A stretch of DNA of 64,000 bases, from positions 128,121 to 192,120 of the forward strand of contig JBBRSU010000001.1 of the NCBI GenBank assembly GCA_038245195.1, in the 5' to 3' direction. Below are positions 12,397 through 49,618 of the stretch, one piece after another. The position numbers and the translations under genes are program-made. The notes under the pieces were generated by a model. It made no database searches. It was given only the letters and a program-made list of their open reading frames with translations, and was not told where the DNA came from. The DNA is from Candidatus Saccharimonadales bacterium. GTDB taxonomy: Bacteria; Patescibacteriota; Saccharimonadia; Saccharimonadales; UBA10212. The stretch's first letter is position 1; every line of letters begins with the position of its first letter.

Positions 12397-12654
12397 ATGC
12401 ACAGCTACATGGAAAGGCCAATGGCAACGCCGATTGTGGTCAATAATCAAGACCCAGTCTTATTGGGCAATATGCTTGAACAAACGTCGGGCGAAAAAAG
12501 AGATATCATTCGAAACCAACGTGATGCAATTAAATCAATAGTAGGATCATTAGCTTTGAGCGAAGGGCTGATTATGGGTATAGCAACAATGGGCCCAGCT
12601 GAAAGATTATTTCTGGCGGAAGCAAGAGAAGCTTCCGAAGGTAGTCTTCTCTGA
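12397..12654 (+). CDS. hypothetical small protein
   Basis: 85-aa ORF preceded by aaggag (12384-12389). No family recognised. Confidence 0.4.
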   Translation: MHSYMERPMATPIVVNNQDPVLLGNMLEQTSGEKRDIIRNQRDAIKSIVGSLALSEGLIMGIATMGPAERLFLAEAREASEGSLL

Positions 12655-12678
12655 ATTACTTAACTAGTTAAGTAATTC
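12653..12678. repeat. perfect 26-bp palindrome, member of the TACTTAAC/GTTAAGTA family
   Basis: gaattacttaactagttaagtaattc equals its own reverse complement. It begins inside the TGA stop (12652-12654) of the preceding ORF. Confidence 0.9.
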
Positions 12679-12818
12679 ATTTGACTGTTTATCGGATTTG
12701 GCTTGAGGTATAGTTTTAGGAATGTTTTTTTCAAGTGTAGTGACTAGGCTCTCGGAGATTTGTTTACTCTGCAGACTGTTAATTTGAGTAATTAACAAAA
12801 ATATGTTAAATAATATAT

Positions 12819-13340
12819 GTGAGACAAAATACTGAATACAGCAATACTTTTTGTAGAGATTACCCGGGAGAAATTAGCAGTGAATCCGATGCCGGTATAA
12901 ATGCGGGCTTTAGAATACGACTTGATGGGTTAATAGAACATACATTTTCTGATTATTATCCTCAAAATATGACCGAAGGGACATCACGCACCAGTAACGA
13001 GATAATGGTCAAAGAGCCATTCTCAAAAGAAACTAAGAAGCTAGAACTTTTTGAAGTAGATGGCCAGCCACTGACGTTGCATTTTTATATTTACAAACCC
13101 GAAGAGCATCCTGAAAATCACCTACCTTACAGCCCCAGCATCAACGCTATATTCCATTTGCAAGCAACTGAAGCCAAACCGGCTAGGATTTATGAGAGCA
13201 TTTATCTTTCGCAAAAACATTTTGATACATCAAATAGTCGATATGATGAGCTAAAGATTTTAGAGAATTTTGAACGTATGGAACAAGCTATCGACTTATA
13301 TAACTGGGCACTTGGAGTAAACCAACCGGCTATTTCTTAA
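12819..13340 (+). CDS. hypothetical protein
   Basis: 173-aa ORF with a GTG start and no recognisable motifs. Its 3' end overlaps the convergent GT4 gene by 11 nt. Confidence 0.4.
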   Translation: MRQNTEYSNTFCRDYPGEISSESDAGINAGFRIRLDGLIEHTFSDYYPQNMTEGTSRTSNEIMVKEPFSKETKKLELFEVDGQPLTLHFYIYKPEEHPENHLPYSPSINAIFHLQATEAKPARIYESIYLSQKHFDTSNSRYDELKILENFERMEQAIDLYNWALGVNQPAIS

Positions 13341-14421
13341 TCACTCGCTGTACGTAAGTCTGAAAATTATCGCTAAATACCACCGCAGAATATTTCTGGG
13401 AAGATTTTTGGATTTGAGTTGAGTTGTAATTTCCGGGATTAAACTTTTTAAGCTCGTTGGTCAGACTTTCGACGGTCTGTTCACTAAAAAACTCGCCGGT
13501 TTTACCTGGCTGAACATAATCTAAGGCACCCCCAGCTTCATAAGCAATTACAGGTGTGCCAGCAGCCAATGCTTCAACTGCTACAATCCCAAAGTCATCT
13601 ATGCCGGGGAAGATAAAGGCTAGAGAAGTTTGAAAATAGTGGGCCAGCTCTTCGTCGGTTTTACCGCGTAAGAATGTTACTGATTTTCCGGCCAGACGCT
13701 TGAGCTTGCCATGGTCTGGCCCACTACCTAGTACCACCAGTGGCAGATTAAGCTGAGTGCAAGCCTTAACCGCCAAGTCGATTTTTTTATAGGGCGTTTG
13801 CCGGCCAGCGATAACAAAGCCGCGTCGTGGTTCCTCGGCTTTGCCGGCAAACCGCTCGATTTCAACTGGCGGGTGAATTACCACCGAATCCCGCCCATAA
13901 TATTGCTTAATCTGATCTTTGATGAAGTTGGAGTTAGCAATTAAGTAATTAGGCCTTTGGGCGGCACTGTAATCCCAGCGTCGCATAGGACCAAGAAGTA
14001 TTTTTAAACCAAGCCGGGCCAGCCAGTTTAGTCTTCCGAAGCCAGGGTTGGCCATGTAGTCGTTGTAACGGCTCCAATAATAATGTGTCGGGGCATGAAT
14101 GTACGACATATGCACCGTGTGAGCGGCGACTTTAATGCCTTTGGCTTCGGCACCGGAGCTAGAGATTACTAAGTCGTATTCGCTTAAGTCTAAGTGCGAA
14201 AACCACCAAGCCCGTAATGGTGGCAAAAACTTACGGAGCTTAGAAAATGGCCAGTTTTGCATGTAGCTAGTGATAACTTGAGTGCCAGCTAATTTTTCGT
14301 GCCATTCAGGCGAACAATAGGCAGTATAAATCGGGGCTTTGGGGTACATCTTATGAAGCTCGTAAACTACCCGCTCAGCGCCACCGCCCACGAACCAATC
14401 ATGAATGATGGCAACTTTCAT
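13330..14421 (-). CDS. glycosyltransferase, GT4 family
   Basis: MKVAIIHDWFVGGGAERV at the N-terminus and FIFPGIDDFGIVAVEALAAGTPVIAYEAGG near the C-terminus fit the mannosyl/glycosyl-transferase GT4 pattern. Confidence 0.8.
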   Translation of the reverse strand: MKVAIIHDWFVGGGAERVVYELHKMYPKAPIYTAYCSPEWHEKLAGTQVITSYMQNWPFSKLRKFLPPLRAWWFSHLDLSEYDLVISSSGAEAKGIKVAAHTVHMSYIHAPTHYYWSRYNDYMANPGFGRLNWLARLGLKILLGPMRRWDYSAAQRPNYLIANSNFIKDQIKQYYGRDSVVIHPPVEIERFAGKAEEPRRGFVIAGRQTPYKKIDLAVKACTQLNLPLVVLGSGPDHGKLKRLAGKSVTFLRGKTDEELAHYFQTSLAFIFPGIDDFGIVAVEALAAGTPVIAYEAGGALDYVQPGKTGEFFSEQTVESLTNELKKFNPGNYNSTQIQKSSQKYSAVVFSDNFQTYVQRVIKK

Positions 14422-14424
14422 TAA

Positions 14425-15870: not shown

Positions 15871-15891
15871 CTATACTAGATTGTAGCATTT

Positions 15892-17238: not shown

Positions 17239-17707
17239 GTTAGTCATCCAGTTCATTGAGTATATGGTTTCGGGCGGTGTGTATTTTTGGGTTGGCTACG
17301 GAATCTTATTGTATTTGTACAACGGCTTGCATTGGAGCTTGTGGTGGTCGACAATTGCTAGCAATGTAGTGGGCTGGTCGGCCAACTTTATGCTACAACG
17401 GTTTTGGGTATTTAATAACAAATCACTCAAAACTCATCAAACCCAGGTCACCGGCCGATATATTTTTATAACCCTAGTCGACTTTGTCTTGAACTACTTC
17501 ATCCTATTTGGTCTAAATAGCGTTGGCATACCCCCGAAATTTGGCCAATTTATTAGCTCCGGCTTTTTTACGGTTTGGAACTACCTGTGGTATCGCTTTT
17601 GGGTATTCCCGGTGCATATGAAGAAGCATAAAACTATAGTTACTCCAGTCCGAGTTGTTGCCCACCGGGCCCACGGACATGTGGGTTATCATAGGGCAAC
17701 AAAATGA
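17213..17707 (+). CDS. GtrA-family membrane protein
   Basis: 164 aa with 4 TM segments. FIEYMVSGGVYFWVGYGILLYL and NFMLQRFWVFN are GtrA-like motifs. Confidence 0.65.
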   Translation: MAKKSKNRKLVIQFIEYMVSGGVYFWVGYGILLYLYNGLHWSLWWSTIASNVVGWSANFMLQRFWVFNNKSLKTHQTQVTGRYIFITLVDFVLNYFILFGLNSVGIPPKFGQFISSGFFTVWNYLWYRFWVFPVHMKKHKTIVTPVRVVAHRAHGHVGYHRATK

Positions 17708-18207
17708 GCCCATCGCCAGCAAAAGTTGAACCCAACGAGAGGCTCCGGCCGACTAAAAAACAAAAAGAGCTACTAACATTTATTGAAGATTTTATTATTG
17801 CCCACGGTTATAGCCCCAGTTATCGGGAAATTATGGCTGGCACCGGCCATACTTCGGTAGCAACCGTTAGCTTACATGTTAATAGTTTGATAAATCGTGG
17901 TCATCTAGCAAAACGCGACCGCTCCGCCAGATCTTTGGAGTTAGTAAAAGCTAAAAATCAGCCCACTGATACTGAGATTAAGATTAAACAGCTAAATGCT
18001 AGTGAAGAAAAATGGCTAATTCAGAAAGTTGAGCTATTTTTTAAACAAGCCGAGGACACCCCTAGGCTATCAGAGCCTGAGCTAGACAAGCTATATGTTT
18101 TAATTGGTGCCCTAAAAGTTTTAGGATTAGATGGTGCCGCCCAATCCTTTATGCCACGACTAAACGAGCTCAAGAAATCAAAAGAGTCTAATCAATATAG
18201 TGTTTAG
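17704..18207 (+). CDS. LexA-type winged-helix DNA-binding domain protein lacking the S24 peptidase domain
   Basis: PTKKQKELLTFIEDFIIAHGYSPSYREIMAGTGHTSVATVSLHVNSLINRGHLAKRDRSARSLEL matches the LexA N-terminal DNA-binding domain. The C-terminal ~80 aa have no Ala-Gly cleavage site or Ser/Lys dyad region. Confidence 0.6.
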   Translation: MSPSPAKVEPNERLRPTKKQKELLTFIEDFIIAHGYSPSYREIMAGTGHTSVATVSLHVNSLINRGHLAKRDRSARSLELVKAKNQPTDTEIKIKQLNASEEKWLIQKVELFFKQAEDTPRLSEPELDKLYVLIGALKVLGLDGAAQSFMPRLNELKKSKESNQYSV

Positions 18208-18211
18208 GGTC

Positions 18212-18530: not shown

Positions 18531-19046
18531 ATGGATTCAATAATTATATTCGGTGCCAAGTTCTTATTCGTGCTAGTGCCCGTGCTTTTTGTGGTTGCGT
18601 TATATCAAGCTAGTAAAAAACACCAGAAACAGCTTATTGTAGCGGTGGTTGTAGCTGTAATTGTGGCTGCCATCGCTGATAAGATCTTGAGCAAACTTTA
18701 TTACGATCCCAGGCCTTTTGTGACTCATCACCTAAAACCTCTAGTGGCCCATGCCGCTGATAACGGTTTTCCCTCCGAGCACACCCTTTTTTCAATCACA
18801 ATCAGTAGCGTGCTTTATGCCTATCGAAAACGCCTAGGACTATTAGCCCTGGGCGTCTCGATGATAGTTGGTATTGCTAGAATAGCTGCTCATGTCCACT
18901 CACCGATAGATATTTTAGGTGCAATCGCTATCGGTGCTGGCTCAGCCTATATTGGCGTTTGGGTAGCTGCTAAATACTTAGCTAAACACTCAAAGAAGCT
19001 AAACGCTACGCCGACCCACAATCATATTGTAGATAAACACCACTAG
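18531..19046 (+). CDS. PAP2-family phosphatase (undecaprenyl-diphosphatase/BcrC-like)
   Basis: The PAP2 motifs are KxxxxxxRP (KLYYDPRPF), PSEHT (FPSEHTLFS) and SRxxxxxHxxxD (ARIAAHVHSPIDILGA). Confidence 0.8.
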   Translation: MDSIIIFGAKFLFVLVPVLFVVALYQASKKHQKQLIVAVVVAVIVAAIADKILSKLYYDPRPFVTHHLKPLVAHAADNGFPSEHTLFSITISSVLYAYRKRLGLLALGVSMIVGIARIAAHVHSPIDILGAIAIGAGSAYIGVWVAAKYLAKHSKKLNATPTHNHIVDKHH

Positions 19047-28828: not shown

Positions 28829-29000
28829 AATTTAATGAGAAAAGTACTACAAAAATGTGAAGCAGACCGTGGTATTATTAAATTCTTAACAAATGGGTTG
28901 CTGGAAGTTAGTGAAAATCTAACACTGTGCCGCAACGGTGATGCGCTTTTAAGCGATAAGTCCGATACAGCTTTTTAGTAAATTTGCTCCCGAGCAGGAG

Positions 29001-29025
29001 AAGTACTTAACTTATCAAGTATTTT
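29001..29025. repeat. degenerate copy of the TACTTAAC/GTTAAGTA palindrome family
   Basis: aagtacttaacttatcaagtatttt has an intact left arm and 2 changes in the right arm. It sits in the divergent intergenic region 28809-29056. Confidence 0.6.
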
Positions 29026-29056
29026 AAACCTCTGCCAGCGAGCCGGGGTATTTTTT

Positions 29057-30475
29057 TTGGAAACAAGCGAAAAATTAATTGAACGAACTAGGCCCAGGCT
29101 AGCCTGTGAAATCTATGATCAGCCGACAATGGAACAGCAAGCTTGGCTATTAATTAATTCGCGTGACCAAATCGAGCACGACCGCTGGGAACAAGAACCA
29201 AGTATAAATGCTAGAACCGCATTATTCGAGGCCCTTACAGCCAAAGGCCATCTATCCAGAATTGAATTTAATGAACCTCCAGAGTTAACCAACCAACGAA
29301 CTCTTCAAAGATTGATAAATGGTTGGGCTGATAGTCTGCCAGACTGGGAAAAACAACGCCGGTTTTCAGAAATTGTCGAGGAACTAACGATACATGAGGT
29401 CTATGAAGATATTAAAGCCGGTCTGTTGCCTGAAGATACCATAATTATCACTATCTCCAATTTTCCGCAGGGCGTTTCGGAGCAAGAAGCCACCCAAAAC
29501 GGTTATGGGGTACTGAATCAAAAAGGGATGACCCGAACAACCGCCTTTGAAGATGAGTTTAGAGTATTGGAGCAAGCGTCTAGGAGCAATAGTAACGACG
29601 GCAGTGCCGAGCGTTTCTTCTCAGCTCAAGGTCTTGTAGCTGAGCAGGGGGCTAATCAGCTATTGGCTAATCAGATTATAGCTACCAAACGTGATTTCCC
29701 GGACGGTGTAGTAAGCATCCAACAAATTTTAGACAGCTACTCTGGACCAAATGTTATTTACGGGGAAAATCGCCATCAAATGGATTTTAATGTTCCGGAA
29801 TATTATGAGCTTAGAGATATATCCGCCCAACGAGAGTTACAAGCCGAAAGTTTTATAAAAATACTAGAGAACTATGAGCGGCAGTTAAATATTAGCTACA
29901 ATGCTGGGCATATAAACTATGACCAGAAACTTTCAGCCTTATATATAAAACGCAAAGAACTGGTAGCTCAGATATGTTTGCTTTGTCCTGATTATGCCAA
30001 GGATGCTATGGGTGAACGATCGGCTGAATATATTAAGCAAGCGTCATATGCCATGGCCGCCGGCAATGATTCGGCCGGTATGCAGCACATGGAAATGGCA
30101 GTATCAGTTGCCGACTCTCGGGCCGGAGCGGTTTGCGGTGGTAGTGGGCTAGAATCGAATGACATTAACAATAATTCCAACTCCGATGTTAAGCTCATCT
30201 ATCTTGAAGCCAAAGAAGAGCGCAAAAACTGGAAATGGGCTCGCGGAGTTTGTGTAGTTAAAGAGTGTCCTAGCCGCCCGGTAAAAACCGAAGTTGGTCC
30301 GTGTAGCGTCTGCCGAAATTGCCAAAATATATTCGATAAAGGCGATACTCCCAAGCAAATTTATAAAGTCTTAGGTTTCTTGGATATTTTGTTTGAATCG
30401 CTGGCCGAATTCAATCGAAAATACGATGCCGAGCAAGCTGAAAAGAAAGCTAATAAGTCGAAGTTAGCTGCGTAA
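29057..30475 (+). CDS. hypothetical protein (472 aa) with C-terminal Cys-rich zinc-ribbon-like motif
   Basis: Long ORF. The start is uncertain: TTG at 29057 has no SD. The C-terminus reads CVVKECPSRPVKTEVGPCSVCRNC. No family recognised. Confidence 0.5.
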   Translation: METSEKLIERTRPRLACEIYDQPTMEQQAWLLINSRDQIEHDRWEQEPSINARTALFEALTAKGHLSRIEFNEPPELTNQRTLQRLINGWADSLPDWEKQRRFSEIVEELTIHEVYEDIKAGLLPEDTIIITISNFPQGVSEQEATQNGYGVLNQKGMTRTTAFEDEFRVLEQASRSNSNDGSAERFFSAQGLVAEQGANQLLANQIIATKRDFPDGVVSIQQILDSYSGPNVIYGENRHQMDFNVPEYYELRDISAQRELQAESFIKILENYERQLNISYNAGHINYDQKLSALYIKRKELVAQICLLCPDYAKDAMGERSAEYIKQASYAMAAGNDSAGMQHMEMAVSVADSRAGAVCGGSGLESNDINNNSNSDVKLIYLEAKEERKNWKWARGVCVVKECPSRPVKTEVGPCSVCRNCQNIFDKGDTPKQIYKVLGFLDILFESLAEFNRKYDAEQAEKKANKSKLAA

Positions 30476-30499
30476 AAATACTTAACTTGTTAAGTATTT
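30476..30499. repeat. palindrome family copy (exact 24-mer aaatacttaacttgttaagtattt)
   Basis: It has 11-bp perfect arms around TT. It fills the whole 22-nt gap between two convergent genes, whose stops are at 30473-30475 and 30498-30500. Confidence 0.9.
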
Positions 30500-32252
30500 A
30501 AGATTTGGCACGGCTAAGGCTGGCTAGGCTGCCCACTACGCTATGGCCCAGTTTTTTACGCTTAACTTTGCGCTGTTCCACGCCGTGCTGCTTCTTAAGA
30601 TAGCGGATGTGTTGTTCGCGGATTCGTTTAAAGTCCGATTTAGCAAAGCCGGACTTTTTTACAAAAGCCCCGATTTTTTCACCGCCAATAAAGTGCGGTA
30701 ATATCACATAGCTGGCGCCCTCATCGTAAAGTTTGCCGGCTTGTTTGGGGCTGTCGGCTTCGGCAATCACCACAGCTTCAGAATTTTTACGTTTCAAATA
30801 ATCTAGTAAAAACGAATTTGCCACCGGATCGGTGATGGTTGAAACAATTAGCTTGGCTCTGCTGATGTTGGCTTCGTCTAGCAGTTCTACGTCGGTACTA
30901 TCACCATAAATATGGGGGATTTTGCGCTGAATTAGGACATCGATAATTTCCGGGTCATAATCTACCACCACAAAACTACCTTTCAGTTGACGAAAAACTT
31001 TCACAAACTCATGGCCGCCTTTTTGATAGCCAAACAACACCATTTCGTAATTTTTAGGCTGAGCCGGCTCGCTGTGAGTATGGCTGCGCTCGAAAATATC
31101 CAAAAATCGTTCTAGCACACTAAAAATTCGCTCGCTAAAGATAATTAAATAAGATGATGCAGCGATAGAAACTAGGGCGATAAAAGTAATTGCTGTGACT
31201 AAACTGGAATCGATTAAGCCACGGCGATGGGCCAGCAGAACAAGCACAATTGAGAACTCACTAACTTGGGCCAGGGCCACCGAGGCTTTAAAACTGGTGC
31301 GCTTAGTGTAGCCAAGATAGCCCATTACGGCCATTGAAACTAAGGGCTTGGCAATAATAACTATTAAAGCTGAAACTAAAATTACTGGGAACATAGGGCC
31401 GATATGGTTGAGGTTGAGATTGGCACCCAATGCAATGAAGAAAACGATGACAAAAAAATCACGCAGTGGTCGCAAGCGAGCAGCAATTTCTTGGGCGTAG
31501 GGCTGAGTGGCCAGGCAAATACCGGCCAGCAGAGCCCCAATTTCGCTAGATAAGCCAATTTTTTGAAACAAGGCAGCGGCACCCAAGCCCCAAGCAATCG
31601 CAAATAAAAACAAAAATTCCTGACTGCCGGAAATTAGTCGATGATAACGTGGCAGTAACCGGTCGCTGATCCAGTAAATCACCAAACCCAAGACCCCGCC
31701 TTTTATAGCCAGCACAATTGTCGAACCAAGGGCTAGCGATTTGGTGTTGCCGGCCGAGGTTATCACTACCAACATAATCGCGAATAAGTCCTGAACCAAA
31801 GACACACTAATGGCAATTTTGCCGTATAGACGTGATTGCTCACGCTTATCACTTAGCATTTTTAGAATGATAATCGTGCTAGAAACTGCCAGACTGGCAC
31901 CCAAAAAAGCCGCCCCAGTGGAGCTTAAGCCTAGGGCTTTACCAAAAACCCAACCAAGGGCTGTGATAACTCCAACTTGGACTGAAGCCACATAGGTAGC
32001 AGTTTTACTAACCTCACGGACAATTTGCGGGTTTAACCCCAAGCCGATGATGAACAACAACAGGGCAATGCCTAGATCGGAAAATAGAGCCAAAGTGTCT
32101 GGTGATTTGGCAACATGGAATACCGCCGGTCCAACAATAATGCCAGTTAGGATGTGGCCAATAATTAGTGGCTGGTTGATGGCCCGCATCATTAACGCCA
32201 TAGCCGCACCGATTACGATAATTAAGCTAAGACCGGAAAATACGGTATCCAT
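30498..32252 (-). CDS. cation:proton antiporter (CPA2/Kef-type) with C-terminal RCK/TrkA-N domain
   Basis: 584 aa. About 12 TM segments form a Na_H_exchanger-like domain. This is followed by MVLFGYQKGGHEFVKVF...VVDYDPE, a Rossmann-type RCK domain. Confidence 0.8.
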   Translation of the reverse strand: MDTVFSGLSLIIVIGAAMALMMRAINQPLIIGHILTGIIVGPAVFHVAKSPDTLALFSDLGIALLLFIIGLGLNPQIVREVSKTATYVASVQVGVITALGWVFGKALGLSSTGAAFLGASLAVSSTIIILKMLSDKREQSRLYGKIAISVSLVQDLFAIMLVVITSAGNTKSLALGSTIVLAIKGGVLGLVIYWISDRLLPRYHRLISGSQEFLFLFAIAWGLGAAALFQKIGLSSEIGALLAGICLATQPYAQEIAARLRPLRDFFVIVFFIALGANLNLNHIGPMFPVILVSALIVIIAKPLVSMAVMGYLGYTKRTSFKASVALAQVSEFSIVLVLLAHRRGLIDSSLVTAITFIALVSIAASSYLIIFSERIFSVLERFLDIFERSHTHSEPAQPKNYEMVLFGYQKGGHEFVKVFRQLKGSFVVVDYDPEIIDVLIQRKIPHIYGDSTDVELLDEANISRAKLIVSTITDPVANSFLLDYLKRKNSEAVVIAEADSPKQAGKLYDEGASYVILPHFIGGEKIGAFVKKSGFAKSDFKRIREQHIRYLKKQHGVEQRKVKRKKLGHSVVGSLASLSRAKS

Positions 32253-32253
32253 C

Positions 32254-33618
32254 CTAATGAACTAGCGAGAAAATCGCTGCTCCGCCAGCCAATATCATCA
32301 GGCCGGTAACCGCCCAGCCAATAATTGTAGTGGAGGGTTTGTTAACCCACGGGCCCATAATTTTTTTGTTACTGCTAATGATTACAATTAGTACTAGCAC
32401 CACAGGGGCTACAACGCCATTAAACACAGCCGAGTATATCAAGGCCTTAATTGGGTCTAGCCCGATAAAATTCAACCCCAACCCGATTAGCATCGATAAA
32501 ATAATAACCCCATAAAAAGCATGGGCTTGTTTAAATTTACGGTAAAGGCCTTCGTTTAGCTTAAAACTCTCAGCAAATGCGTAACTGCTAGCACCGGCCA
32601 GTACCGGTATAGCCAGCAGGCCGGTACCGATAATGCCTACAGCGAATAGTAAGTAGGTAGCGTTACCGGCAAACGGCCGTAGGGCTTCGGCCGCCTGGGC
32701 GGCGGTGGTAATTTTAGTTATCCCGTGAGTGAATAATAGAGCACCGGAAGCGGCGATAATAAAGAACATCACTAAGTTACTTAGCAACATACCGCTCCAG
32801 ACATCTATACGCATATTGTGTACATCAGCCTTATGTACGTCGTTTTGGCGGGAAGTTATGCTGGTTTTCCCATCCATGATTTCCTGCTCGACTTCTTGCG
32901 AGGTCTGCCAAAAGAAAAGATATGGCGAAATGGTCGTACCCAAAATCGCACAAATTAGTAAAATCTGGTCCTTGCTCCAAGTGATACTTGGTATCGTAGC
33001 GTGTTTTAGCACATCACCCCAATTTAAGTGGGCCAGCAAAGCCGAGGCGATATAAGCCAACAGCACTAAGGCCAGCCACTTTAGGTATTTGGCGTAGCGG
33101 GCGTATGGTGTGAATATTTGCAAGCCGACACTTAATAAGGTAAAGCCGATAACCAATGCCGGAAAGTTTAAACTCGGCCGCAGTAGTTGGGCACCTTTGG
33201 CCATGGCGCCTAGGTCGGCACCAATGTTGAAGGCGTTGGCCGCGAATAAAAGCAAGGTGCAGGCGTATAAAACTTTTTTGGAAAAATGTGTCCGAATAAC
33301 CCCGGCCAGGCCACGGCCGGTCACCATGCCAATCCGGGCGCACATTTCCTGTACAACGGCCATTAGCGGAAATGTAATAATCGATAGCCAGAGTAGCTGA
33401 AAGCCGTACTGGGCACCGGTTTGGGAATAAGTGGCAATGCCGGATGGGTCGTCGTCTGATGCGCCAGTTGTCAGTCCAGGGCCTAAAATATTCCAGTATT
33501 CACGGGTTTTCTTGACAGTTTTGGTGGCACCAACTTGCTTAACCCTATTGGAAACCGCGTCGTTAATAGACCCGACTTCGTTTTCGGCTCTTTGCTGAAT
33601 TGTCTGTTTTTTTACCAT
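32254..33618 (-). CDS. mntH: NRAMP-family divalent metal (Mn2+/Fe2+) transporter
   Basis: GPGLTTGASDDDPSGIATYSQTGAQYGFQLLW and MVTGRGLA are NRAMP signatures. 11 TM segments. Confidence 0.8.
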   Translation of the reverse strand: MVKKQTIQQRAENEVGSINDAVSNRVKQVGATKTVKKTREYWNILGPGLTTGASDDDPSGIATYSQTGAQYGFQLLWLSIITFPLMAVVQEMCARIGMVTGRGLAGVIRTHFSKKVLYACTLLLFAANAFNIGADLGAMAKGAQLLRPSLNFPALVIGFTLLSVGLQIFTPYARYAKYLKWLALVLLAYIASALLAHLNWGDVLKHATIPSITWSKDQILLICAILGTTISPYLFFWQTSQEVEQEIMDGKTSITSRQNDVHKADVHNMRIDVWSGMLLSNLVMFFIIAASGALLFTHGITKITTAAQAAEALRPFAGNATYLLFAVGIIGTGLLAIPVLAGASSYAFAESFKLNEGLYRKFKQAHAFYGVIILSMLIGLGLNFIGLDPIKALIYSAVFNGVVAPVVLVLIVIISSNKKIMGPWVNKPSTTIIGWAVTGLMILAGGAAIFSLVH

Positions 33619-33711: not shown

Positions 33712-33735
33712 AAATACTTAACTTGTTAAGTATTT
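33712..33735. repeat. palindrome family copy (exact 24-mer aaatacttaacttgttaagtattt)
   Basis: It is identical to the copy at 30476-30499. It overlaps the stop codon (33734-33736) of the DsbA-like gene. Confidence 0.9.
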
Positions 33736-34414
33736 ACGGCTTGGTTTTAGCGTCGATTTCGGCTTTGATAGCTGCACCAATTTTATCAGCACTAGGCGCA
33801 CCAGTTTGAGCATCGACTAATCCGCTGTTAGGCAGATATTTTCCGTCTAGGAAAAAGGTTGGCGTGGCTTTTTCTTGTTTGGTTTTATCAAAAGCCGCGA
33901 TATCGGCGTTAATTGAATCGTTAACTTGTGAGCTGGCATAATCGGTTTTGAACTGGCTAACATTTAAGCCGATTTGTTGAGCGTACTGAGCGAAAGTGTC
34001 CAGCGGGCTAGTAGAGCTTACCCAGGAATTCTGGTTTTCGTAGAGTTTATCGTGCATCTGCCAAAACTTGCCCTGCAACGATGCGGCTTCGGCCGCCCTA
34101 GCACCAGCAAAAGCGTTTTGGTGGATGGCCGTTAAGGGAAGGTTGCTAAACTGAAAATGAATGTCGTTGGAGTATTGGCTAAACATCTGTTTTAGAGGCA
34201 AGTAATAGGCTTCGCAGATTGGACATTCGTAATCGCCGTATTCAACCAGACTAACGTTTTTTAAGCCCTTACCTTCAACGTGAGAAGAAACTTGGCTGCC
34301 GCTGTTTTTTGAGCCGGATCCACTAGAATTGCTGCTGGAATGCTGGCTAATCACAAAAATTCCCACAAAAACAATAGCTATTCCACTAAGAATTCCCAAA
34401 AACCGCTTATCCAT
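33734..34414 (-). CDS. DsbA-family thiol:disulfide oxidoreductase, membrane-anchored
   Basis: It has an N-terminal TM segment, a Ser-rich linker, the CPICEAY active site (CxxC) and a thioredoxin fold. Confidence 0.75.
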   Translation of the reverse strand: MDKRFLGILSGIAIVFVGIFVISQHSSSNSSGSGSKNSGSQVSSHVEGKGLKNVSLVEYGDYECPICEAYYLPLKQMFSQYSNDIHFQFSNLPLTAIHQNAFAGARAAEAASLQGKFWQMHDKLYENQNSWVSSTSPLDTFAQYAQQIGLNVSQFKTDYASSQVNDSINADIAAFDKTKQEKATPTFFLDGKYLPNSGLVDAQTGAPSADKIGAAIKAEIDAKTKP

Positions 34415-37182: not shown

Positions 37183-38577
37183 ATGGAGCGAATTTTAATT
37201 AAGGATACTGTTGATAAAGTTGGCGACAAAGTTATTGTTAAGGGTTGGGTGCACGCTCGGCGCGACCACGGAAAATTAATTTTTATAGATTTACGCGACC
37301 GTGGTGGGTTACTCCAAGTAGTTTTTTGGGGCGGTGGTGATACCAAGCTTTTCAAACAAGCCGAAGAACTACGCAGTGAATTCGTAGTTGCAATTACCGG
37401 CACTGTCCAAAAACGCCAAGACAACCAAATTAATCCAGATTTACCAACCGGTACAGTTGAGCTAGCCGCCGAGAAGCTAGAAATTATTAGCCAAGCCGAA
37501 ACCCCGCCATTCGAAATCGCCGACTCCAATGTTCCAGAAGCCGGTGAAGAATCTCGCCTAAAATATCGATACCTAGACTTACGTCGCGATAAAATGCAAC
37601 ACAACATCCGCTTGCGTAGTGCCTTTGTCCAAAAATGCCGCGAATATTTATTCAGCCAAGATTTCGTAGAAATCGAAACACCGTTATTAACCGAGGCCAC
37701 ACCGGAAGGCTCGCGCGATTTCGTAGTGCCATCCCGCTTAAACCAAGGTAAGTTCTATGCTTTGCCACAGTCGCCCCAGCAATACAAACAGCTATTAATG
37801 ATTGGCGGGTTTGAGCGCTACTTCCAAATTGCCCGGGCTATCCGCGACGAAGACCCGCGGGCCGACCGTGGCTTCGAACACACTCAGGTAGATATCGAAA
37901 TGAGCTTTGTCGAACAAGATGACGTTATGAACACAGTCGAAGCGATGATGATTAAAACCGTTGAATCACTGGGCTTTAAAGTCAAAGACAAGCCGTTTCC
38001 GCGTTTTACATATGCCGAGGCAATGGAAAAATTCGGAGCTGACAAGTTCGATTTACGCAGCGGCGAAGAAAAGAAAGACCCTAAACTGCTGGCTTACGCC
38101 TGGGTATATAAGTTTCCATTTTTTGAAAAAACCGAAGAAGGCGGTTGGACCTTTACCCATAACCCGTTCAGCATGCCAGTCCCAGAGCATCTTGATGATT
38201 TGTTAAACAAAAATAACATCGAGAATATTCTAACCACCCAGTATGACCTGGTTTGTAACGGCTATGAATCGGGCGGTGGCAGTATCCGGGCCCACCAGCC
38301 AGAAATTCTTAAAGCCGTATACGAAGTTATGGGCTATTCTGCCGAGAAAATCCAAGACAGTGTCGGGCATATGCTGGAAGCCTTTAAATATGGCACGCCG
38401 CCACACGGTGGTATCGCTCTGGGCGTGGAGCGCAACCTAATGAACTTAACCGGCGAAAGCTACCTGCGCGAAGTCCAAGCCTTCCCAATGACCGGCAAAG
38501 GTCAAACCGCTGTTATGAAGGGCCCTAAACCACTTACCGATGCCCAGCTCAAAGAACTCGGGCTAAAAATTTCCTGA
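37183..38577 (+). CDS. aspS: aspartate--tRNA ligase, bacterial-type motifs but lacking the GAD insertion domain
   Basis: It has an OB-fold N-terminus (VIVKGWVHARRDHGKLIFIDLRD). Motif region: FYALPQSPQQYKQLLMIGGFERYFQIARAIRDEDPRADRGFEHTQVDIEMSF. C-terminus: GGGSIRAH...PPHGGIALGVER. It is only 464 aa: FGADKFDLR is followed directly by ...FPFFEKTEEGGWTFTHNPFSMP. Confidence 0.9.
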   Translation: MERILIKDTVDKVGDKVIVKGWVHARRDHGKLIFIDLRDRGGLLQVVFWGGGDTKLFKQAEELRSEFVVAITGTVQKRQDNQINPDLPTGTVELAAEKLEIISQAETPPFEIADSNVPEAGEESRLKYRYLDLRRDKMQHNIRLRSAFVQKCREYLFSQDFVEIETPLLTEATPEGSRDFVVPSRLNQGKFYALPQSPQQYKQLLMIGGFERYFQIARAIRDEDPRADRGFEHTQVDIEMSFVEQDDVMNTVEAMMIKTVESLGFKVKDKPFPRFTYAEAMEKFGADKFDLRSGEEKKDPKLLAYAWVYKFPFFEKTEEGGWTFTHNPFSMPVPEHLDDLLNKNNIENILTTQYDLVCNGYESGGGSIRAHQPEILKAVYEVMGYSAEKIQDSVGHMLEAFKYGTPPHGGIALGVERNLMNLTGESYLREVQAFPMTGKGQTAVMKGPKPLTDAQLKELGLKIS

Positions 38578-38675
38578 CGAGTTAAGTATCATATACAACA
38601 GTTTAAATTAGATATATAAGGGAGTCTTGCACTGGCCCGGTAAGGAAAATTCCCTTGACCGAACCAGCGCGCTGA

Positions 38676-39903: not shown

Positions 39904-40656
39904 ATGACGTGGCACGAATTACAACCGGTAGCGGTTTTTTTGGTAACCTTTGTAGCATCGGCGTTTAGCGGCATGGCTGGCGGTGGCGGAGGCTTTATTG
40001 TAAACCCGTTTTTAATTGCCTTGGGCCTAACACCACAGCAAACCGTTGCCACCGCTAAGTTTGTAAGTTTTGGATTAACGGGGGGCAGTATTCTGGCATT
40101 CCGCGAGCGCATGCTACAAAACAAAAGATTTAGTTTGTTCATCATAGTTTTATCGGCGGTGATTGGGATTATAGCTAGCCTTTTACTCAGGAAAGTAGAT
40201 AACAAAAGCCTTCAGCTGCTAATGGGCATCATCACTTTAGCCATGGTGCCATTTATGCTAAAAAAAGCCCGTGGTCTAAAAAGTACAAAAGTAAATCAAA
40301 TATCAAAAGTCCTCGGTGCAATTTCTCTAGCATTCATTTTATTCCTACAGGGAATATTAAGTGGCGGGATAGGCTCTTTAGTCTCAGCAATATTTATAGT
40401 TTTTTTCGGCACTACGGCCTTGGAAGCCAATATCCTAAAACGAAAAGCATCATTAGTGCTGAACGTTGTGATTGTGGTGAGTCTGCTTGGTAGCGGTTTG
40501 ATAAACTACAAATTTGGATTTTTTGGCATGGCCGGCGGATTGCTAGGTGGCTACGTTGGCTCGCGGATTGCCATAAAAAACGGTGATGAATTCGCCAAGT
40601 ATGCCCTACTGGTATTTATGGTAGTGTCTGGCGTGTGGTTAGTTGTCACTGCTTAA
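39904..40656 (+). CDS. TSUP (TauE/SafE, DUF81) family anion exporter-like membrane protein
   Basis: 250 aa with 8 TM segments. Gly-rich motifs (FSGMAGGGGGFIVNP; GMAGGLLGGYVGSRIA) are typical of TauE/SafE. Confidence 0.7.
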   Translation: MTWHELQPVAVFLVTFVASAFSGMAGGGGGFIVNPFLIALGLTPQQTVATAKFVSFGLTGGSILAFRERMLQNKRFSLFIIVLSAVIGIIASLLLRKVDNKSLQLLMGIITLAMVPFMLKKARGLKSTKVNQISKVLGAISLAFILFLQGILSGGIGSLVSAIFIVFFGTTALEANILKRKASLVLNVVIVVSLLGSGLINYKFGFFGMAGGLLGGYVGSRIAIKNGDEFAKYALLVFMVVSGVWLVVTA

Positions 40657-40672: not shown

Positions 40673-41200
40673 ATGAATCCGACTGAGTTTGAAGACTCCA
40701 TAAAAATTCCATCACCACAAGAATTTGAAGGTCCTAACGGCCTTCTAGTTACAGAGCTTACAAACTGGGACTCCCAAGAATTATTTAATTTCGTCAAAGC
40801 CAATGGTGGTGAAAAGTTTAGCCCGGAGTTAGAGCAAATACATACAGAGTATGAAGCTTTGAAAATGATTCAAAATAGAGAATTCTCAACTTATGGAGCG
40901 AGACTTGGAAAAGAGGAGCCATTGGCTGCGATTATTACGGTAGGCCAAGAAGCTGAGGACCGAGTTAGTATCGGCTACGTAGTTGGGAAAGATTTCAGAG
41001 GCCAGGGAGTTGCAACTGGTGCTATTAAAACGATTAGTCAAAATTATCTAATGATTCCTGGCATAAATACCATCAGATGTTACGTTAATCCAAAAAACAT
41101 CGCCAGCCGAGGACTGTTAGAAAAATGCGGTTTTCATTTACAAGGTGAAATCTTATACAAAAATGTGTTTTATGACTTAGATAAGCCTAAAAATACTTAA
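40673..41200 (+). CDS. GNAT-family N-acetyltransferase (RimJ/RimL-like)
   Basis: IGYVVGKDFRGQGVATGAIKTI...NIASRGLLEKCGFHLQG matches GNAT motifs A and B. Confidence 0.7.
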   Translation: MNPTEFEDSIKIPSPQEFEGPNGLLVTELTNWDSQELFNFVKANGGEKFSPELEQIHTEYEALKMIQNREFSTYGARLGKEEPLAAIITVGQEAEDRVSIGYVVGKDFRGQGVATGAIKTISQNYLMIPGINTIRCYVNPKNIASRGLLEKCGFHLQGEILYKNVFYDLDKPKNT

Positions 41201-41216
41201 CTTGTTAAGTATTTTT
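41189..41216. repeat. palindrome family copy with 13-bp arms (aaaaatacttaac tt gttaagtattttt)
   Basis: It has perfect arms. The gene's TAA stop (41198-41200) lies inside the left arm. The A5/T5 flanks give a bidirectional terminator-like shape. Confidence 0.9.
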
Positions 41217-41246: not shown

Positions 41247-41603
41247 ATGGATCTGCTATTGATTCTTTTAGGAATAATCGCCGGCGGGCTAGCCGGTTTA
41301 CTGGGTGTTGGTGGCGGAATTATAATTGTACCGGCACTGATTTATATCTTTCACTTTAGCCAAAAGACTGCCCAGGGCACCACACTGGCCTTACTTGTAC
41401 CGCCAATCGGTATACTTGCAGCCTATGCATATTACAAAACCGGCCACGTTAATATTCGCGCGGCATTGTTTATTGTGGCAGGTTTCTTGATAGGTAGTTT
41501 TCTGAGTGCCCAGTTCACAAATAGTATTAACGAAGCATATCTTAGTAGAATTTTTGGGACATTTTTATTAGTGGTTGCTATACGAATGATAATTTGGGGA
41601 TAA
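41247..41603 (+). CDS. half-size TSUP (TauE/SafE) family membrane protein
   Basis: 118 aa with 4 TM segments. GGLAGLLGVGGGIIIVPALIYIF is the TauE N-terminal motif. Confidence 0.6.
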   Translation: MDLLLILLGIIAGGLAGLLGVGGGIIIVPALIYIFHFSQKTAQGTTLALLVPPIGILAAYAYYKTGHVNIRAALFIVAGFLIGSFLSAQFTNSINEAYLSRIFGTFLLVVAIRMIIWG

Positions 41604-44464: not shown

Positions 44465-44526
44465 TAAACTAACTCGTTTTGAAAAACCTAAACTAAAGTC
44501 TATAGTTAAGCATAAGCAATAAAACA

Positions 44527-46293: not shown

Positions 46294-46323
46294 AAACTTT
46301 CAAACTTTGTAAACTAAATATCC

Positions 46324-46893
46324 GTGGCATATATAACGCAATCTTTTGACGATGAGATAGTCCGGCTATTGAATAACGGCGGAGTTGGTTTATTGCCAAG
46401 CGACACGATTTACGGATTGTCTTGCCGAGCACTTGGTGAAGTGGCAGTAGAGCGACTTCATAAGCTGAAGGATCGCAGTGCCGGTAAGCCGTTCATCATT
46501 TTAATTTCGAATATAAAAATGCTTGACTTGTTAAGTATTTCTAAATCTCAAGCCGAACCAGCTTTTAAATACTGGCCGGGCGCACTAAGTGCAATCCTAG
46601 AATCTAAAGCCCCAAAATTTTTAACCCTCAATACGAACTCACTCGCAGTTCGTATGCCCAACCAACCAGACTTACTCAAGCTTATTGATAAAGTTGGGCC
46701 AATTGTTAGTACCAGTGCCAATCTAGAAGGAGGTAAGCCAGCACAGTCTGTGGCTGAAGCTAAATCTATATTTGCTGATAAGCTCGATTTTTATGTTGAT
46801 GTCGGCCCGCTGGATGGTTCGCAGTCGACGTTGGCGGCACTTAAGGACGGCCGGCTGGAAGTGATTCGCCAAGGGGCTGTTAGAATTAACTAA
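46324..46893 (+). CDS. tsaC: L-threonylcarbamoyladenylate synthase (YrdC/TsaC type)
   Basis: LPSDTIYGLSCRA, KLKDRSAGKPFIILI, PGALSAIL and VSTSANLEGGKP are YrdC/Sua5 family motifs. GTG start. Confidence 0.8.
   Translation: MAYITQSFDDEIVRLLNNGGVGLLPSDTIYGLSCRALGEVAVERLHKLKDRSAGKPFIILISNIKMLDLLSISKSQAEPAFKYWPGALSAILESKAPKFLTLNTNSLAVRMPNQPDLLKLIDKVGPIVSTSANLEGGKPAQSVAEAKSIFADKLDFYVDVGPLDGSQSTLAALKDGRLEVIRQGAVRIN
46517..46540. repeat. near-copy of the palindrome family inside tsaC coding sequence
   Basis: aaatgcttgacttgttaagtattt differs from the exact 24-mer at 2 left-arm positions. It encodes KMLDLLSIS. Confidence 0.6.
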
Positions 46894-46905
46894 ACAGGAG
46901 AATTT

Positions 46906-47232: not shown

Positions 47233-47882
47233 TCTCTTAATGTCGTGAGCTTTGCGGGGTTGTTGTCTAGGCTTTGCCACAGGTACCAGCTGGCCACTGA
47301 TTCATACGGATGCCATTTATTTTTATTTGAAAGCGTAGTTATCTGCTCGGGCGTTGGCATTTCTTTGAACCCATAAAGTAGCATTATGGCTTTTCTGACA
47401 CCTAAATCGCCAACCGGTAAAATATCCAGCCGGCCCAAACCGAACATCATAAACATGTGGGCACTCCATTCGCCAAGGCCCTTAACGGCTGTTAATTGCT
47501 CTATAACTTGTTGGTTGGGCATGGTGGCGATGTGGTCTAAATCTAGCCGTCCGTCCAAGATGTGTTGGGCTAAATCCTTTACGTATTTAACTTTGGCCCA
47601 GCTTAAACCAACATCTCGCAGTTTTTGGTCCTCAACTTTTATAAGCTCTTGTGGTGTTGGCATTTTGTCACCAAACAAGGCTAAGACTCGTTTCCAAATC
47701 GTCCCGGCGGCGGCAGTTGATAGCTGTTGACCAACGATACTGCCGACTAGTTCACCATAATAATCGGTATGTGGTTTGATACTACACTGTCCGCTGGCTT
47801 GGATAATTGGAGCCAATTTTTTATCATTTTTAGCCAAATAGAGTTCAGCTGTACGTAAATTTTCCTGAAAAGTCATATTCAC
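47229..47882 (-). CDS. HhH-GPD DNA glycosylase (DNA-3-methyladenine glycosylase II, AlkA-like)
   Basis: LTAVKGLGEWSAHMFMMFGLGRLDILPVGDLGVRKA is the HhH-GPD motif, including the catalytic Asp. Confidence 0.75.
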   Translation of the reverse strand: MNMTFQENLRTAELYLAKNDKKLAPIIQASGQCSIKPHTDYYGELVGSIVGQQLSTAAAGTIWKRVLALFGDKMPTPQELIKVEDQKLRDVGLSWAKVKYVKDLAQHILDGRLDLDHIATMPNQQVIEQLTAVKGLGEWSAHMFMMFGLGRLDILPVGDLGVRKAIMLLYGFKEMPTPEQITTLSNKNKWHPYESVASWYLWQSLDNNPAKLTTLRD

Positions 47883-47893
47883 ATTAAAGCACG

Positions 47894-48334
47894 ATGAAAT
47901 TGGCTTATGTTAAAATCACAGATATGCAGCCAGCTAATCCCCAACCCCGAACTCCTAGTAATCAAACTGTTTCTGGCACAGGTCTAAATACCGATATTGT
48001 CGGCAACATTCCCCTCAAAACTCAAGACGGCTTTTTAAACCCCCTAAAGGACGACGAAGAACTGGATTCATTAATGAATGACGTCAGCAACAATCTGAAG
48101 CAAACTGGCACAAAGCCAGTAAAAAAACGATTTTTTGATTTTAAGCGGCAAGCCAAAACCCAAAAACAACCGCAAAAACCTAAGCAAGCAGCACCGGCCC
48201 ATTCTCAGCCACAAACACCGGGCCAACCAAAAATTATGACTCCAAAATCAAACCCTAAGCCTGTTCTAGCTATTTGTCTGACAGTTATTGTTACCGGCAC
48301 CTTAATTGCCGCTGCCGTTTTTGCCTACAAGTAG
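47894..48334 (+). CDS. hypothetical P/Q-rich protein with C-terminal TM anchor
   Basis: 146 aa with low-complexity sequence. The C-terminus VLAICLTVIVTGTLIAAAVFAY is a TM anchor. Confidence 0.4.
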   Translation: MKLAYVKITDMQPANPQPRTPSNQTVSGTGLNTDIVGNIPLKTQDGFLNPLKDDEELDSLMNDVSNNLKQTGTKPVKKRFFDFKRQAKTQKQPQKPKQAAPAHSQPQTPGQPKIMTPKSNPKPVLAICLTVIVTGTLIAAAVFAYK

Positions 48335-49618
48335 TCAGCTAAATTCTTGGCGGAGCCACTCGCCCAACGAACCAGCCCCACCGGCACTCAAACACAGAAC
48401 TAAGTCACCGACCAAAATATGTTGCTTAATTGTGTCTTTTAATGCACTGTCTAGCTCGGCCGTATCAGCTCTGGATTTGGATTTATTACTTAACAAGTTA
48501 AGTAATTTAACAGGGGTAAATACTTCTAAAGACTCATCTTCGCGGGCTAGATAGCTTGGAACAATATACAACTTTTTAACGCTATCAAACAAACCCCTCA
48601 ACTGATCCTTAATAAAATGCTGGCGGGTGTTGTGCAGACCTTCGTAAATAACCACCACATTATCACCGGCTAGTTCGTGGGCTAATTGCAGAGCGCCGCG
48701 GATTTTCGGAGGCGTATGGGCATAATCGGAATAAAGATTATCGATAATTTTTTCGAACCGCCGAGAAACTCCCGGGAATTTGTTTAGCTTGTTAATCAAG
48801 GTCTGAAGTGGTTCATTGACTATCGGTTGCAAGACTTGGGCAACCAACCAAGCGTTAAGGCGATTAACATGTCCGGCTAGATTTAGCTTTACATCAATTT
48901 GGCTGTCTGTTTGGTCTAAAATCTTTAGGCTTTGAGTTGCTTCTAAGGCCAATTTCTCGGCATCGTCGTGCCACATATAAGTTGTTTGGCTTTGTTCGAT
49001 GAATTCCAGAAATGCTTGGTTGTAGCTTTCGCGGGTTGGGTAAATATCTGGGTGGTCCCAATCTATCCCAGAAATTAGAGAAACTTCTGGGTAAAAACAT
49101 AAAAAATTACGATCGAATTCGTCGCATTCATAAATGAAATACTGACTTTGCTTATCCAGCTGAGCCATATCGCCAAAACTAATTTTGCCGCCCACAAGAT
49201 AACTGATGGGTAAATCTAGTTGCTTGAATAACCAGATTGCCATAGCCGAAGTTGTGGTCTTACCATGGGTCCCAGCGATAGCGATTAGCTTTAAGCCCTG
49301 AGCTTCAATTAGTTTATTTAAAAACTCATCACGCTTACTTAACTTAATATTATTTTTGGTACTAAAGTCTAGTTCGGGATGACCGGCTGGCAAAGCTGAA
49401 GTGAAAACTAGCCAATCGATTGGATTCTGGGCATGAACTTCGGCAATCTGCTCTGTGGTTTGACCGATGTGAATATCTTTAATTCCGTGTTGGCGGAGGT
49501 AGTCAATATATGGTCCCTCCATTTGGTCTGAACCGGAAACGTCATAACCGGCTTGGTGAGCCAATAAAGCCAGGCCACTATGGCCCGAACCACCGATCCC
49601 AGAAAAGAAAACATGCAT
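48335..49618 (-). CDS. Mur ligase family protein (UDP-N-acetylmuramate--L-alanine ligase MurC-like)
   Basis: GIGGSGHSGLALLAHQAGYDVSGSD is a MurC-type N-terminus, and IAIAGTHGKTTTSAM is the P-loop. Confidence 0.75.
   Translation of the reverse strand: MHVFFSGIGGSGHSGLALLAHQAGYDVSGSDQMEGPYIDYLRQHGIKDIHIGQTTEQIAEVHAQNPIDWLVFTSALPAGHPELDFSTKNNIKLSKRDEFLNKLIEAQGLKLIAIAGTHGKTTTSAMAIWLFKQLDLPISYLVGGKISFGDMAQLDKQSQYFIYECDEFDRNFLCFYPEVSLISGIDWDHPDIYPTRESYNQAFLEFIEQSQTTYMWHDDAEKLALEATQSLKILDQTDSQIDVKLNLAGHVNRLNAWLVAQVLQPIVNEPLQTLINKLNKFPGVSRRFEKIIDNLYSDYAHTPPKIRGALQLAHELAGDNVVVIYEGLHNTRQHFIKDQLRGLFDSVKKLYIVPSYLAREDESLEVFTPVKLLNLLSNKSKSRADTAELDSALKDTIKQHILVGDLVLCLSAGGAGSLGEWLRQEFS
48485..48506. repeat. 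perfect 22-bp palindrome family copy inside the Mur ligase CDS
   Basis: attacttaac aa gttaagtaat. On the coding strand it encodes KLLNLLSNK. It lies about 150 nt from the gene's 3' end. Confidence 0.85.

Follow-up and report, generated by a model that had tools for sequence, protein, structure and literature searches.

What keeps a short, nearly pure A/T palindrome intact at the ends of unrelated genes? The question is raised by a 64-kb stretch of a Candidatus Saccharimonadales genome (64,000 nucleotides, called the window below), which holds five perfect copies of TACTTAAC-NN-GTTAAGTA together with three to four degenerate ones (Table 1). Saccharibacteria and other Patescibacteria have tiny genomes with few regulators, and to our knowledge virtually nothing is known of their cis-regulatory code. 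Here, we describe the palindrome as a real, non-random, lineage-wide cis-element, best filed as an AdcR/ZitR-type MarR operator with a distribution that lies largely outside promoters and partly in coding sequence.

A palindrome shared across the Saccharibacteria

As the first-pass annotation of the window had supposed, copies of the palindrome exceed what composition alone would give. With up to three mismatches allowed, the 24-mer AAATACTTAACTTGTTAAGTATTT matched seven loci in the window and none in 100 dinucleotide-preserving shuffles, and the 8-mer arm occurred 16 times where 2.5 occurrences were expected. That annotation had reported three exact occurrences of the 24-mer, the third within a 28-bp palindrome, as well as two perfect variant palindromes of 26 and 22 bp and two degenerate copies, one of them with two mismatches inside tsaC; our search recovered every one. 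It had also placed four of the five perfect copies at stop codons, one of them filling an entire 22-nt gap between convergent genes, and both statements held when the stops of three open reading frames (ORFs; 12397-12654, 33734-34414, and 40673-41200) and the gap itself were checked. The half-site noted after aspS is indeed present, but it forms part of a possible copy across the stop codon, with three mismatches, rather than standing alone; another weak candidate, at 10299-10316, was absent from that annotation. A partial copy suggested near 49338-49348 came down to an isolated half-site (49336-49343) at chance level. The core TTAAC-N2-GTTAA is contained in all five perfect window copies and in all 122 sites listed from the scan described next.

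One genome per GTDB species was scanned for the exact pattern ATACTTAACNNGTTAAGTAT, so that sites were ascertained by exact match. The scan returned at least 118 stretches (122 sites), compared with about nine hits expected by chance in 596 Gb. Among the matches listed, all but three came from metagenome-assembled genomes (MAGs) of Saccharibacteria, Saccharimonadales, or unclassified Patescibacteria, or from evident mis-binned contigs thereof; Saccharibacteria/Saccharimonadales MAGs, which represent many species, account for about 95% of the listed loci. Since at least 118 stretches, nearly all from this lineage, carry it, the palindrome is, judging from its distribution, a class-level feature and no single-genome quirk. 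At the center of the 122 listed sites, TT or AA prevailed (68 sites), followed by AT (25), AC or GT (18), and TA (6), and A at positions -1/-2 and T at +1/+2 stretch the consensus to about 24 bp.

The flanks of the GTDB loci allowed us to compare the palindrome with its parts. Outside the seeded sites, TACTTAAC was observed 50 times, against about 24 expected, with about 20 of the 50 lying in relaxed palindromes; isolated arms and half-sites showed no enrichment and stood about at expectation, which argues that the conserved unit is the palindrome. Copies with up to two mismatches occur about once per 29-44 kb in unbiased flanking DNA, and the window is richer, with about one per 9 kb. The overall density, one per 10-44 kb, corresponds to tens of copies per genome. 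A single 776-kb contig has at least eight exact sites spread over 10-671 kb, and a parS or origin-cluster reading was rejected since they span most of that contig.

Two side observations concern related sequences. The same 20-mer palindrome occurs on two Firmicutes MAG contigs (Sporomusa, Bacillota; L012 6721-6740 and L055 5313-5332, L-numbers being our labels for loci), 150-200 nt upstream of a c-di-GMP-I riboswitch; in those organisms it may serve, without any relation to the Saccharibacterial sites, as an AdcR-like or MarR operator. Separately, Saccharibacteria DNA (loci L002-L119) contains the 8-mers ACCTCTGT/ACAGAGGT, ACCCCTGT, and TCCCCTGC at about four times the expected frequency.

Intragenic copies are constrained at the DNA level

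Only a single open reading frame runs through the palindrome, on either strand, and therefore every intragenic copy encodes ILNxLS(I). Such copies sit in housekeeping enzymes that have no relation to one another, including RecX, ValRS, ApbE, TsaB, RsuA/RluD, GatB, UvrC, and LigA, with KsgA, MurA/C/I, FolC, NifS, Dus, and GDH as further hosts. In RecX, ILNxLS was found at the same place in 86 of the best 120 homologues. Loci of RecX homologues from four species were then fetched with no regard to their DNA sequence: the codons are exactly ATA CTT AAC AAG TTA AGT in three of the species (four loci), and the fourth (IVNKLS) differs by one base, whereas free synonymous choice would yield this codon set with a chance of about 4e-4 per species. 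Similarly, ValRS orthologues with only 38-40% protein identity carry the identical 20-mer at the same position, and their DHWILNKLSI aligns with the WIL..L motif of class-I synthetases. Because the proteins with intragenic copies can be aligned to their homologues at every residue, the copies represent substitutions and not insertions. Taken as sequence comparisons, these data demonstrate that the intragenic palindrome is held by a DNA-level constraint. The earlier view that primary sequence is conserved, and not just the ability to fold, was borne out as well.

Conservation at orthologous loci, a check proposed at first pass, was borne out in part. The sites in recX, in ValRS, and in the convergent gap shared with the MAG L077 (72-75% DNA identity to the window at 30.5-34.5 kb) are kept, whereas other intergenic positions turn over: the site upstream of tsaB was present in 1 of 10 orthologues, and that upstream of Nramp in 3 of 5. 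In L037 and L054, recX lacks the site and the adjacent tsaB has one, while most TsaB orthologues are without it; ksgA has the site at its 3' end in four species and inside the gene in L086, L149, and L163. As a side observation, the loci L200-L204 (about 5-16 kb) preserve the gene order type IV pilus genes - recA - NUDIX - recX - ... - tsaE - tsaB - rny - ymdB, with two recurrent sites: recX contains the first, and the second lies where tsaE and tsaB meet.

A MarR-family gene with the palindrome in its promoter

When the proteins encoded downstream of sites were compared, a single family recurred, a MarR/MarR_2 protein (Pfam) of about 140-155 aa whose gene usually follows ksgA directly. The motif lies 20-50 nt upstream of the marR start in 7 of 7 GTDB loci, three of which had been brought in by other sites. 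We also fetched 80 metagenome loci via the MarR protein alone; 76 had sufficient upstream DNA, and 69 of these carried the motif (up to three mismatches) 20-42 nt before the start codon. Here, the site takes the form TACTTGAC-NN-GTTAAGTAT in a fixed orientation, with TTGAC always on the upstream side, and a TAnnnT hexamer follows 17 nt after TTGACn in 50 of 62 distinct marR sites, versus 4% in the control. Read from this geometry, the marR promoter is of the sigma-70 type, with the palindrome over the -35 hexamer and spacer, the classical arrangement of an autorepressed MarR gene. In loci where marR is not preceded by ksgA (L127, L178/L179), marR still has the site, which is thus not merely a ksgA terminator. 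Across the protein collection, the MarR family is about as abundant as RecX (1135 versus 1303 clusters).

Within the MarR clade (P0121-P0240), little or no variation is seen at six positions (H13, H90, H113, H136, C140, and C148), and the C-terminal tail reads MH...C..GK.GAC, a tail missing from distant orthologues such as L028 and L022. The invariant His and Cys residues suggest metal or redox sensing; the set differs from the Zn(II) ligands of AdcR/ZitR. CCCTGCC strings, similar to the over-represented 8-mers above, often occur 5' of the marR promoter. A transposon-sequencing (Tn-seq) dataset for S. epibionticum lists only a truncated 87-aa MarR gene, non-essential and not demonstrably the orthologue. 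The first-pass annotation had named another candidate regulator, the LexA_DNA_bind protein at 17704-18207; no evidence supported it, and a LexA/SOS box was rejected since no motif copy lies nearby.

AdcR and ZitR are zinc-responsive MarR-family repressors of the Streptococcaceae, with the adc motif as their operator. They bind the palindrome TTAACYRGTTAA / TTAACNRGTTAA, overlapping the -35 or -10 box (PMC6372160, PMC7012047, PMC4288194). The inner 12 bp of the Saccharibacterial palindrome, TTAAC-N2-GTTAA, are identical to TTAACYRGTTAA, its own-promoter copy covers the -35 and spacer as in the zit and adc promoters (PMC6372160, PMC4288194), and a MarR-family dimer is the reader, for Saccharibacteria a predicted candidate. 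The earlier statement that no such motif had been described therefore holds for Saccharibacteria, for which the searchable literature yielded no description, but not for the inner box. The Saccharibacterial site differs in that its conserved stretch is longer (20-24 bp), its center prefers TT, AA, or AT rather than YR, and most of its copies avoid promoters, being placed either at the 3' ends of genes or, in frame, within them.

On balance, we lean towards the palindrome being the binding site of a MarR-family dimer, acting as an autoregulatory operator at marR, with the dispersed copies as extra sites that may be roadblocks or landmarks. An operator for a dimeric protein was among the alternatives offered at first pass; it is the one the evidence favors, and the likely reader, by a modest measure, is a protein of the MarR family whose gene lies in another part of the genome. 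Under this proposal, (A)AATACTTAAC-NN-GTTAAGTATT(T) would be the double-stranded recognition site of a homodimeric winged-helix MarR protein conserved across Saccharibacteria and encoded outside the window. Each monomer would read one CTTAAC/GTTAAG half-site in a box of AdcR/ZitR-like architecture, with the A/T flanks probably providing wing or minor-groove contacts, and comparative genomics predicts that binding at the marR promoter would bring about autorepression. The dispersed perfect copies, including all those of the window, would be additional high-affinity sites, located where an approximately 88%-coding genome tolerates 20 bp away from promoters: at stop codons, in convergent gaps, and in the one open frame, with the intragenic ILNxLS(I) placed in helical protein segments. 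That the MarR dimer binds all copies seems somewhat more probable than not. Less certain is what it would do away from promoters: a bound dimer might be a conditional transcription roadblock or an insulator between neighboring transcription units, which we suggest only tentatively, and a role of these copies as chromosome landmarks appears doubtful. Roughly a fifth of the intergenic copies, being lengthened, and roughly a third, being given A/T runs, may add weak bidirectional termination.

Placement relative to genes and what it implies for an operator

Gene contexts were assigned with a simple and crude ORF caller written for this analysis. The 122 listed sites comprise 49 in coding sequences (CDS), 32 in co-directional gaps, 26 in convergent gaps, 9 in divergent gaps, and 6 at the edges of loci. 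Positions drawn at random, by comparison, fall in CDS in 88% of cases and in convergent gaps in 1.6%, so that the sites are about 13-fold enriched in convergent gaps; per intergenic length, the enrichment there is about 2.6-fold, and divergent gaps are about 2.3-fold depleted. Among the co-directional copies, 25 of 32 fall between -16 and +30 nt relative to the preceding stop codon, also where the gap exceeds 100 nt (rough p ~0.02 for stop anchoring in long intergenic gaps), and the TAA in either arm is often the stop codon itself. The clustering at gene 3' ends that was first noted in the window thus extends to the listed sites.

The neighboring genes did not reveal a regulon. Apart from MarR, the flanking proteins had no dominant family, and we rejected a regulon read from them; Nramp, TauE, SecA, TsaB, and a zincin-like protein recur as neighbors in only two to three species each, and no zinc-uptake regulon was evident. 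Of 40 dispersed sites that face a gene start, only 1 is followed by a -10 at the spacing typical of marR, which, together with the incoherence of the neighboring genes, makes a classical regulon unlikely.

This scarcity of promoter-like sites is one of several observations that weigh against a MarR operator. About 40% of the listed sites are intragenic and 21% lie in convergent gaps, both unusual places for repressor operators, while the divergent, promoter-rich gaps are those that are depleted. The Nramp promoter block is conserved in L077 without the site. A roadblock within essential genes (valS, gatB, ligA) would be costly unless weak or conditional. The Saccharibacterial MarR scored only 19.2-32.2 bits against the NCBIfam model AdcR_fam (NF038251; cutoff 175) and is no AdcR equivalog, so that the box in common with AdcR could be convergence; AdcR was also not among the 33 PDB hits (E<=0.01) of this protein. 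No MarR homologue was found in the 64-kb window, so that any marR of the source genome would lie outside the DNA examined. Two further points concern RNA: at least five extra complementary flank bases extend the palindrome in 15 of 70 intergenic copies, against 1.5 by permutation, and not in intragenic copies; and the L077 copy of a riboswitch leader, described below, keeps its hairpin via G.U pairs and a changed arm length, indicating that base pairing matters at some copies.

Hairpins and the terminator alternative

These RNA features belong to the first alternative, by which the copies would be weak bidirectional intrinsic terminators or 3'-end hairpins: a 10-13 bp A/U stem with a CNNG tetraloop and A and U runs would terminate transcription, or stabilize mRNA 3' ends, in both directions, with sequence conservation being secondary. 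We regard this as improbable, although it would explain the anchoring at stop codons, the enrichment in convergent gaps, and the extended stems. U-rich tails are likewise more common among intergenic (33-42%) than intragenic copies (11%), and compensatory, symmetric TA/AT and GC double changes occur in relaxed copies. The hairpins, however, reach a dG of only -6 to -11 kcal/mol, and their stems are A/U except for two to three pairs, in agreement with the first-pass judgment that a pure intrinsic-terminator reading is weak; the canonical GC-rich terminator of the window is far more stable (Table 1), and its presence indicates that the source genome also uses ordinary terminators. Four or more T in positions +1 to +6 were found in 10 of 32 tandem and 11 of 26 convergent copies, symmetrically with the upstream A-run, and no asymmetry between downstream U and upstream A was found in co-directional copies. 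A constraint on folding alone would not explain the invariance of the primary sequence across the class. About 40% of the copies are in essential genes and conserved there at the codon level, and changes in the left arm at marR promoters are not matched by compensating ones.

Mismatches were classified in 23 relaxed copies. They gather in the outer pairs 1-3 and as A/G at pair 7, a pattern that fits protein read-out of the inner box. A sense-strand G.U test gave six consistent and nine inconsistent cases, meaning that wobble changes occur without bias to the transcribed strand.

The degenerate copy at 29001-29025 deserves separate mention. It abuts an adenosylcobalamin (AdoCbl, B12) riboswitch aptamer, and a hairpin is kept 3' of this aptamer in three species, perfect in L117, degenerate in the window, and in L077 containing G.U pairs and arms of a different length; this case speaks for the terminator alternative. 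The copy is the first of two successive hairpins with U-runs in the leader (28876-29056), a layout also seen in L077 and, with an AdoCbl-II aptamer, in L117. Folding and alignment of the three leaders led us to reject this copy as the riboswitch terminator, since a second GC-rich hairpin with a U-run follows and sequesters the Shine-Dalgarno (SD) sequence. The motif hairpin is only one element of the riboswitch platform, which gives partial support for use at the RNA level. The 472-aa ORF downstream of the riboswitch had no Pfam hit. We conclude that the core is probably read as DNA and that some intergenic copies, the smaller part, have evolved further into hairpins that can be used, or else that the perfect palindrome may promote template-switch extension.

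Landmarks, uptake signals, and mobile repeats

A second alternative, which we also rate as improbable, holds that the copies are chromosome landmarks, i.e. docking sites for a protein of transcription-factor fold that was co-opted for nucleoid organization or division control (cf. SlmA-SBS, Noc-NBS, RefZ-RBM, MatP-matS); position relative to genes would be irrelevant, and copies would build up wherever coding allows. The SlmA, Noc, and RefZ systems have readers of TetR or ParB fold and serve nucleoid occlusion or chromosome capture. Like them, the Saccharibacterial palindrome comes as tens of high-information copies per genome, many of them intragenic and positionally conserved in DNA, with a candidate reader of transcription-factor fold. 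Its copies avoid promoter space, they are spread along the 776-kb contig, and their local turnover looks compensatory (recX versus tsaB, and the 3' end versus the inside of ksgA). Yet landmarks would not predict the anchoring to stop codons in long gaps, we know of no description of a stop-codon and convergent-gap bias for the SlmA, Noc, or RefZ systems, and no link was seen between the MarR protein and division proteins.

Returning to the MarR-dimer reading, the protein and its tens of palindromes could also form a genome-wide system without a regulon, a reading to which we assign a low probability. It might take the form of roadblocks under ligand control, placed both within housekeeping genes (valS, recX, gatB, ligA, mur genes) and between them, which would together put a brake on growth in the swarmer/attached life cycle, or of a SlmA/RefZ-like landmark system in bacteria without the classical systems.

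Uptake signals, which the first pass had put forward, are very improbable. Competence machinery would prefer DNA with the motif, the resulting bias would spread it to tolerated positions, and intergenic copies would double as terminators, as inverted pairs do in Neisseria and Haemophilus. In the uptake signal sequences (USS) of Haemophilus and the DNA uptake sequences (DUS) of Neisseria, a single oriented motif is itself highly over-represented, at about one per kb. The Saccharibacterial motif is likewise lineage-wide, its palindromes are enriched downstream of genes, and coding copies, which are confined to the one frame that is tolerated, are often found in genes for housekeeping or genome maintenance (recX, uvrC, ligA). 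Saccharibacteria are, moreover, naturally competent (PMC10633639). Here, however, the palindrome is the unit and the single arm is not over-represented, the density is at least 10-fold lower (10-40 times below known USS/DUS), presence at most orthologous intergenic positions is sporadic, and a promoter copy of fixed orientation, integral to a -35/-10 geometry, has no uptake logic.

Least probable is the REP-like element also proposed at first pass, a selfish REP/MITE-type palindrome spread by a transposase-type enzyme, which would share with the REP/BIME repeats of Enterobacteria and Pseudomonas the short palindrome, the 3' intergenic and convergent placement, and the hairpin potential, and which would suit the central TT of all three identical window 24-mers, but REPs are imperfect, extragenic, species-specific, and RAYT-linked, whereas this motif is perfect, has one core class-wide, arose in genes by substitution (WILNKLS against the WIL..L of ValRS), shows no clean indel between orthologous DsbA-Nramp spacers with and without the site, has only 2 hits among 2.9 million viral contigs (IMG/VR), and comes with no RAYT-like gene that we saw, no systematic RAYT search having been made. 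Given only these 2 viral hits, a phage link was rejected as well. A likeness by eye to integron attC sites (RYYYAAC/GTTRRRY) was rejected, as the 2-nt spacer and the housekeeping contexts do not fit.

Features of the window

The coordinates of the palindrome copies and of the other features discussed are collected in Table 1. Two TauE/SafE-family ORFs, 41247-41603 (118 aa) and 39904-40656 (250 aa), flank the GNAT gene whose stop lies in the 28-bp palindrome, with an MMPL transporter downstream; the 118-aa ORF matches the first half of the TauE profile only and may be split or truncated. The two CIRCE-like inverted repeats lie upstream of the ORF 58111-58815 and of a 641-aa ORF (59746-61671), which presumably constitute an HrcA-controlled chaperone operon; the GAGTGCTAA half also occurs upstream of the ORF at 18531.

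Table 1 Palindrome copies and other features of the 64-kb window
Feature	Coordinates	Strand	Context and remarks
Possible decayed copy TACTTAACCACTTACGTA	10299-10316		Within ORF 9591-10490(+); 2 core mismatches, inner box broken; weak, may be chance
Copy 1, perfect 26-bp palindrome GAATTACTTAACTAGTTAAGTAATTC, TTAC-arm variant	12653-12678		Overlaps TGA stop of ORF 12397-12654(+); ORF 12819-13340(+) begins 143 nt downstream; RNA hairpin dG -10.9 kcal/mol
167-aa LexA_DNA_bind protein	17704-18207	+	Pfam E=1e-11; overlaps end of GtrA-like gene by 4 nt
AdoCbl (B12) riboswitch aptamer	28876-29008	+	Rfam RF01482, 59.3 bits (gathering score 50); 3' end abuts degenerate copy 29001-29025
Degenerate copy AAGTACTTAACTTATCAAGTATTTT	29001-29025 (core 29004-29021)	+	In riboswitch leader, ahead of ORF 29057-30475; 2 core mismatches
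Exact 24-mer AAATACTTAACTTGTTAAGTATTT	30476-30499		Fills 22-nt gap 30476-30497 between convergent genes 29057-30475(+) and 30498-32252(-, Na+/H+ exchanger); kept at orthologous convergent gap in L077
Exact 24-mer AAATACTTAACTTGTTAAGTATTT	33712-33735		Overlaps stop of DsbA-like gene 33734-34414(-); 95 nt upstream of Nramp gene 32254-33618(-); orthologous place has the site in L046 and L117 but not in L077 or L016
Possible decayed copy TTCCTGACGAGTTAAGTA	38571-38588		Spans stop of aspS 37183-38577(+); 3 core mismatches, right arm intact; weak
Perfect 28-bp palindrome AAAAATACTTAACTTGTTAAGTATTTTT	41189-41216		Contains exact 24-mer 41191-41214; left arm holds TAA stop of GNAT gene 40673-41200(+); TauE-like ORF 41247-41603(+) begins 30 nt downstream; hairpin dG -9.5
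Degenerate copy AAATGCTTGACTTGTTAAGTATTT	46517-46540 (core 46520-46537)		Within Sua5/TsaC-family CDS 46324-46893(+), in frame, encodes MLDLLSI; 2 mismatches; includes TTGAC variant arm
Perfect 22-bp palindrome, TTAC variant	48485-48506		Within Mur-ligase CDS 48335-49618(-), in frame, LLNLLSN
Canonical GC-rich bidirectional terminator ACCCCCGATAATCGGGGGTTTAT	50263-50285		Between convergent genes; dG -19 kcal/mol
CIRCE-like inverted repeat	58039-58059		Exact GCACTC-N9-GAGTGC
CIRCE-like inverted repeat	58087-58107		2 mismatches

Implications

The codon-level conservation of the palindrome in recX, valS, and other genes provides a clear case of a DNA constraint shaping protein sequence. Should the genome-wide system described above prove true, a DNA element would dictate the peptide ILNKLSI throughout a bacterial class, in many essential proteins that have nothing else in common. 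The placement at stop codons and in convergent gaps further makes one ask what insulates transcription units from each other where genes are only about 20 nt apart. Cell-cycle regulation in Patescibacteria has been described in a review as "virtually unknown" (PMC11665869). A class-wide element of 20-24 bp with its candidate reader would be the first concrete pair of cis-element and regulator for the newly tractable Saccharibacteria, and the palindrome could supply an operator or insulator part for their genetic tools.

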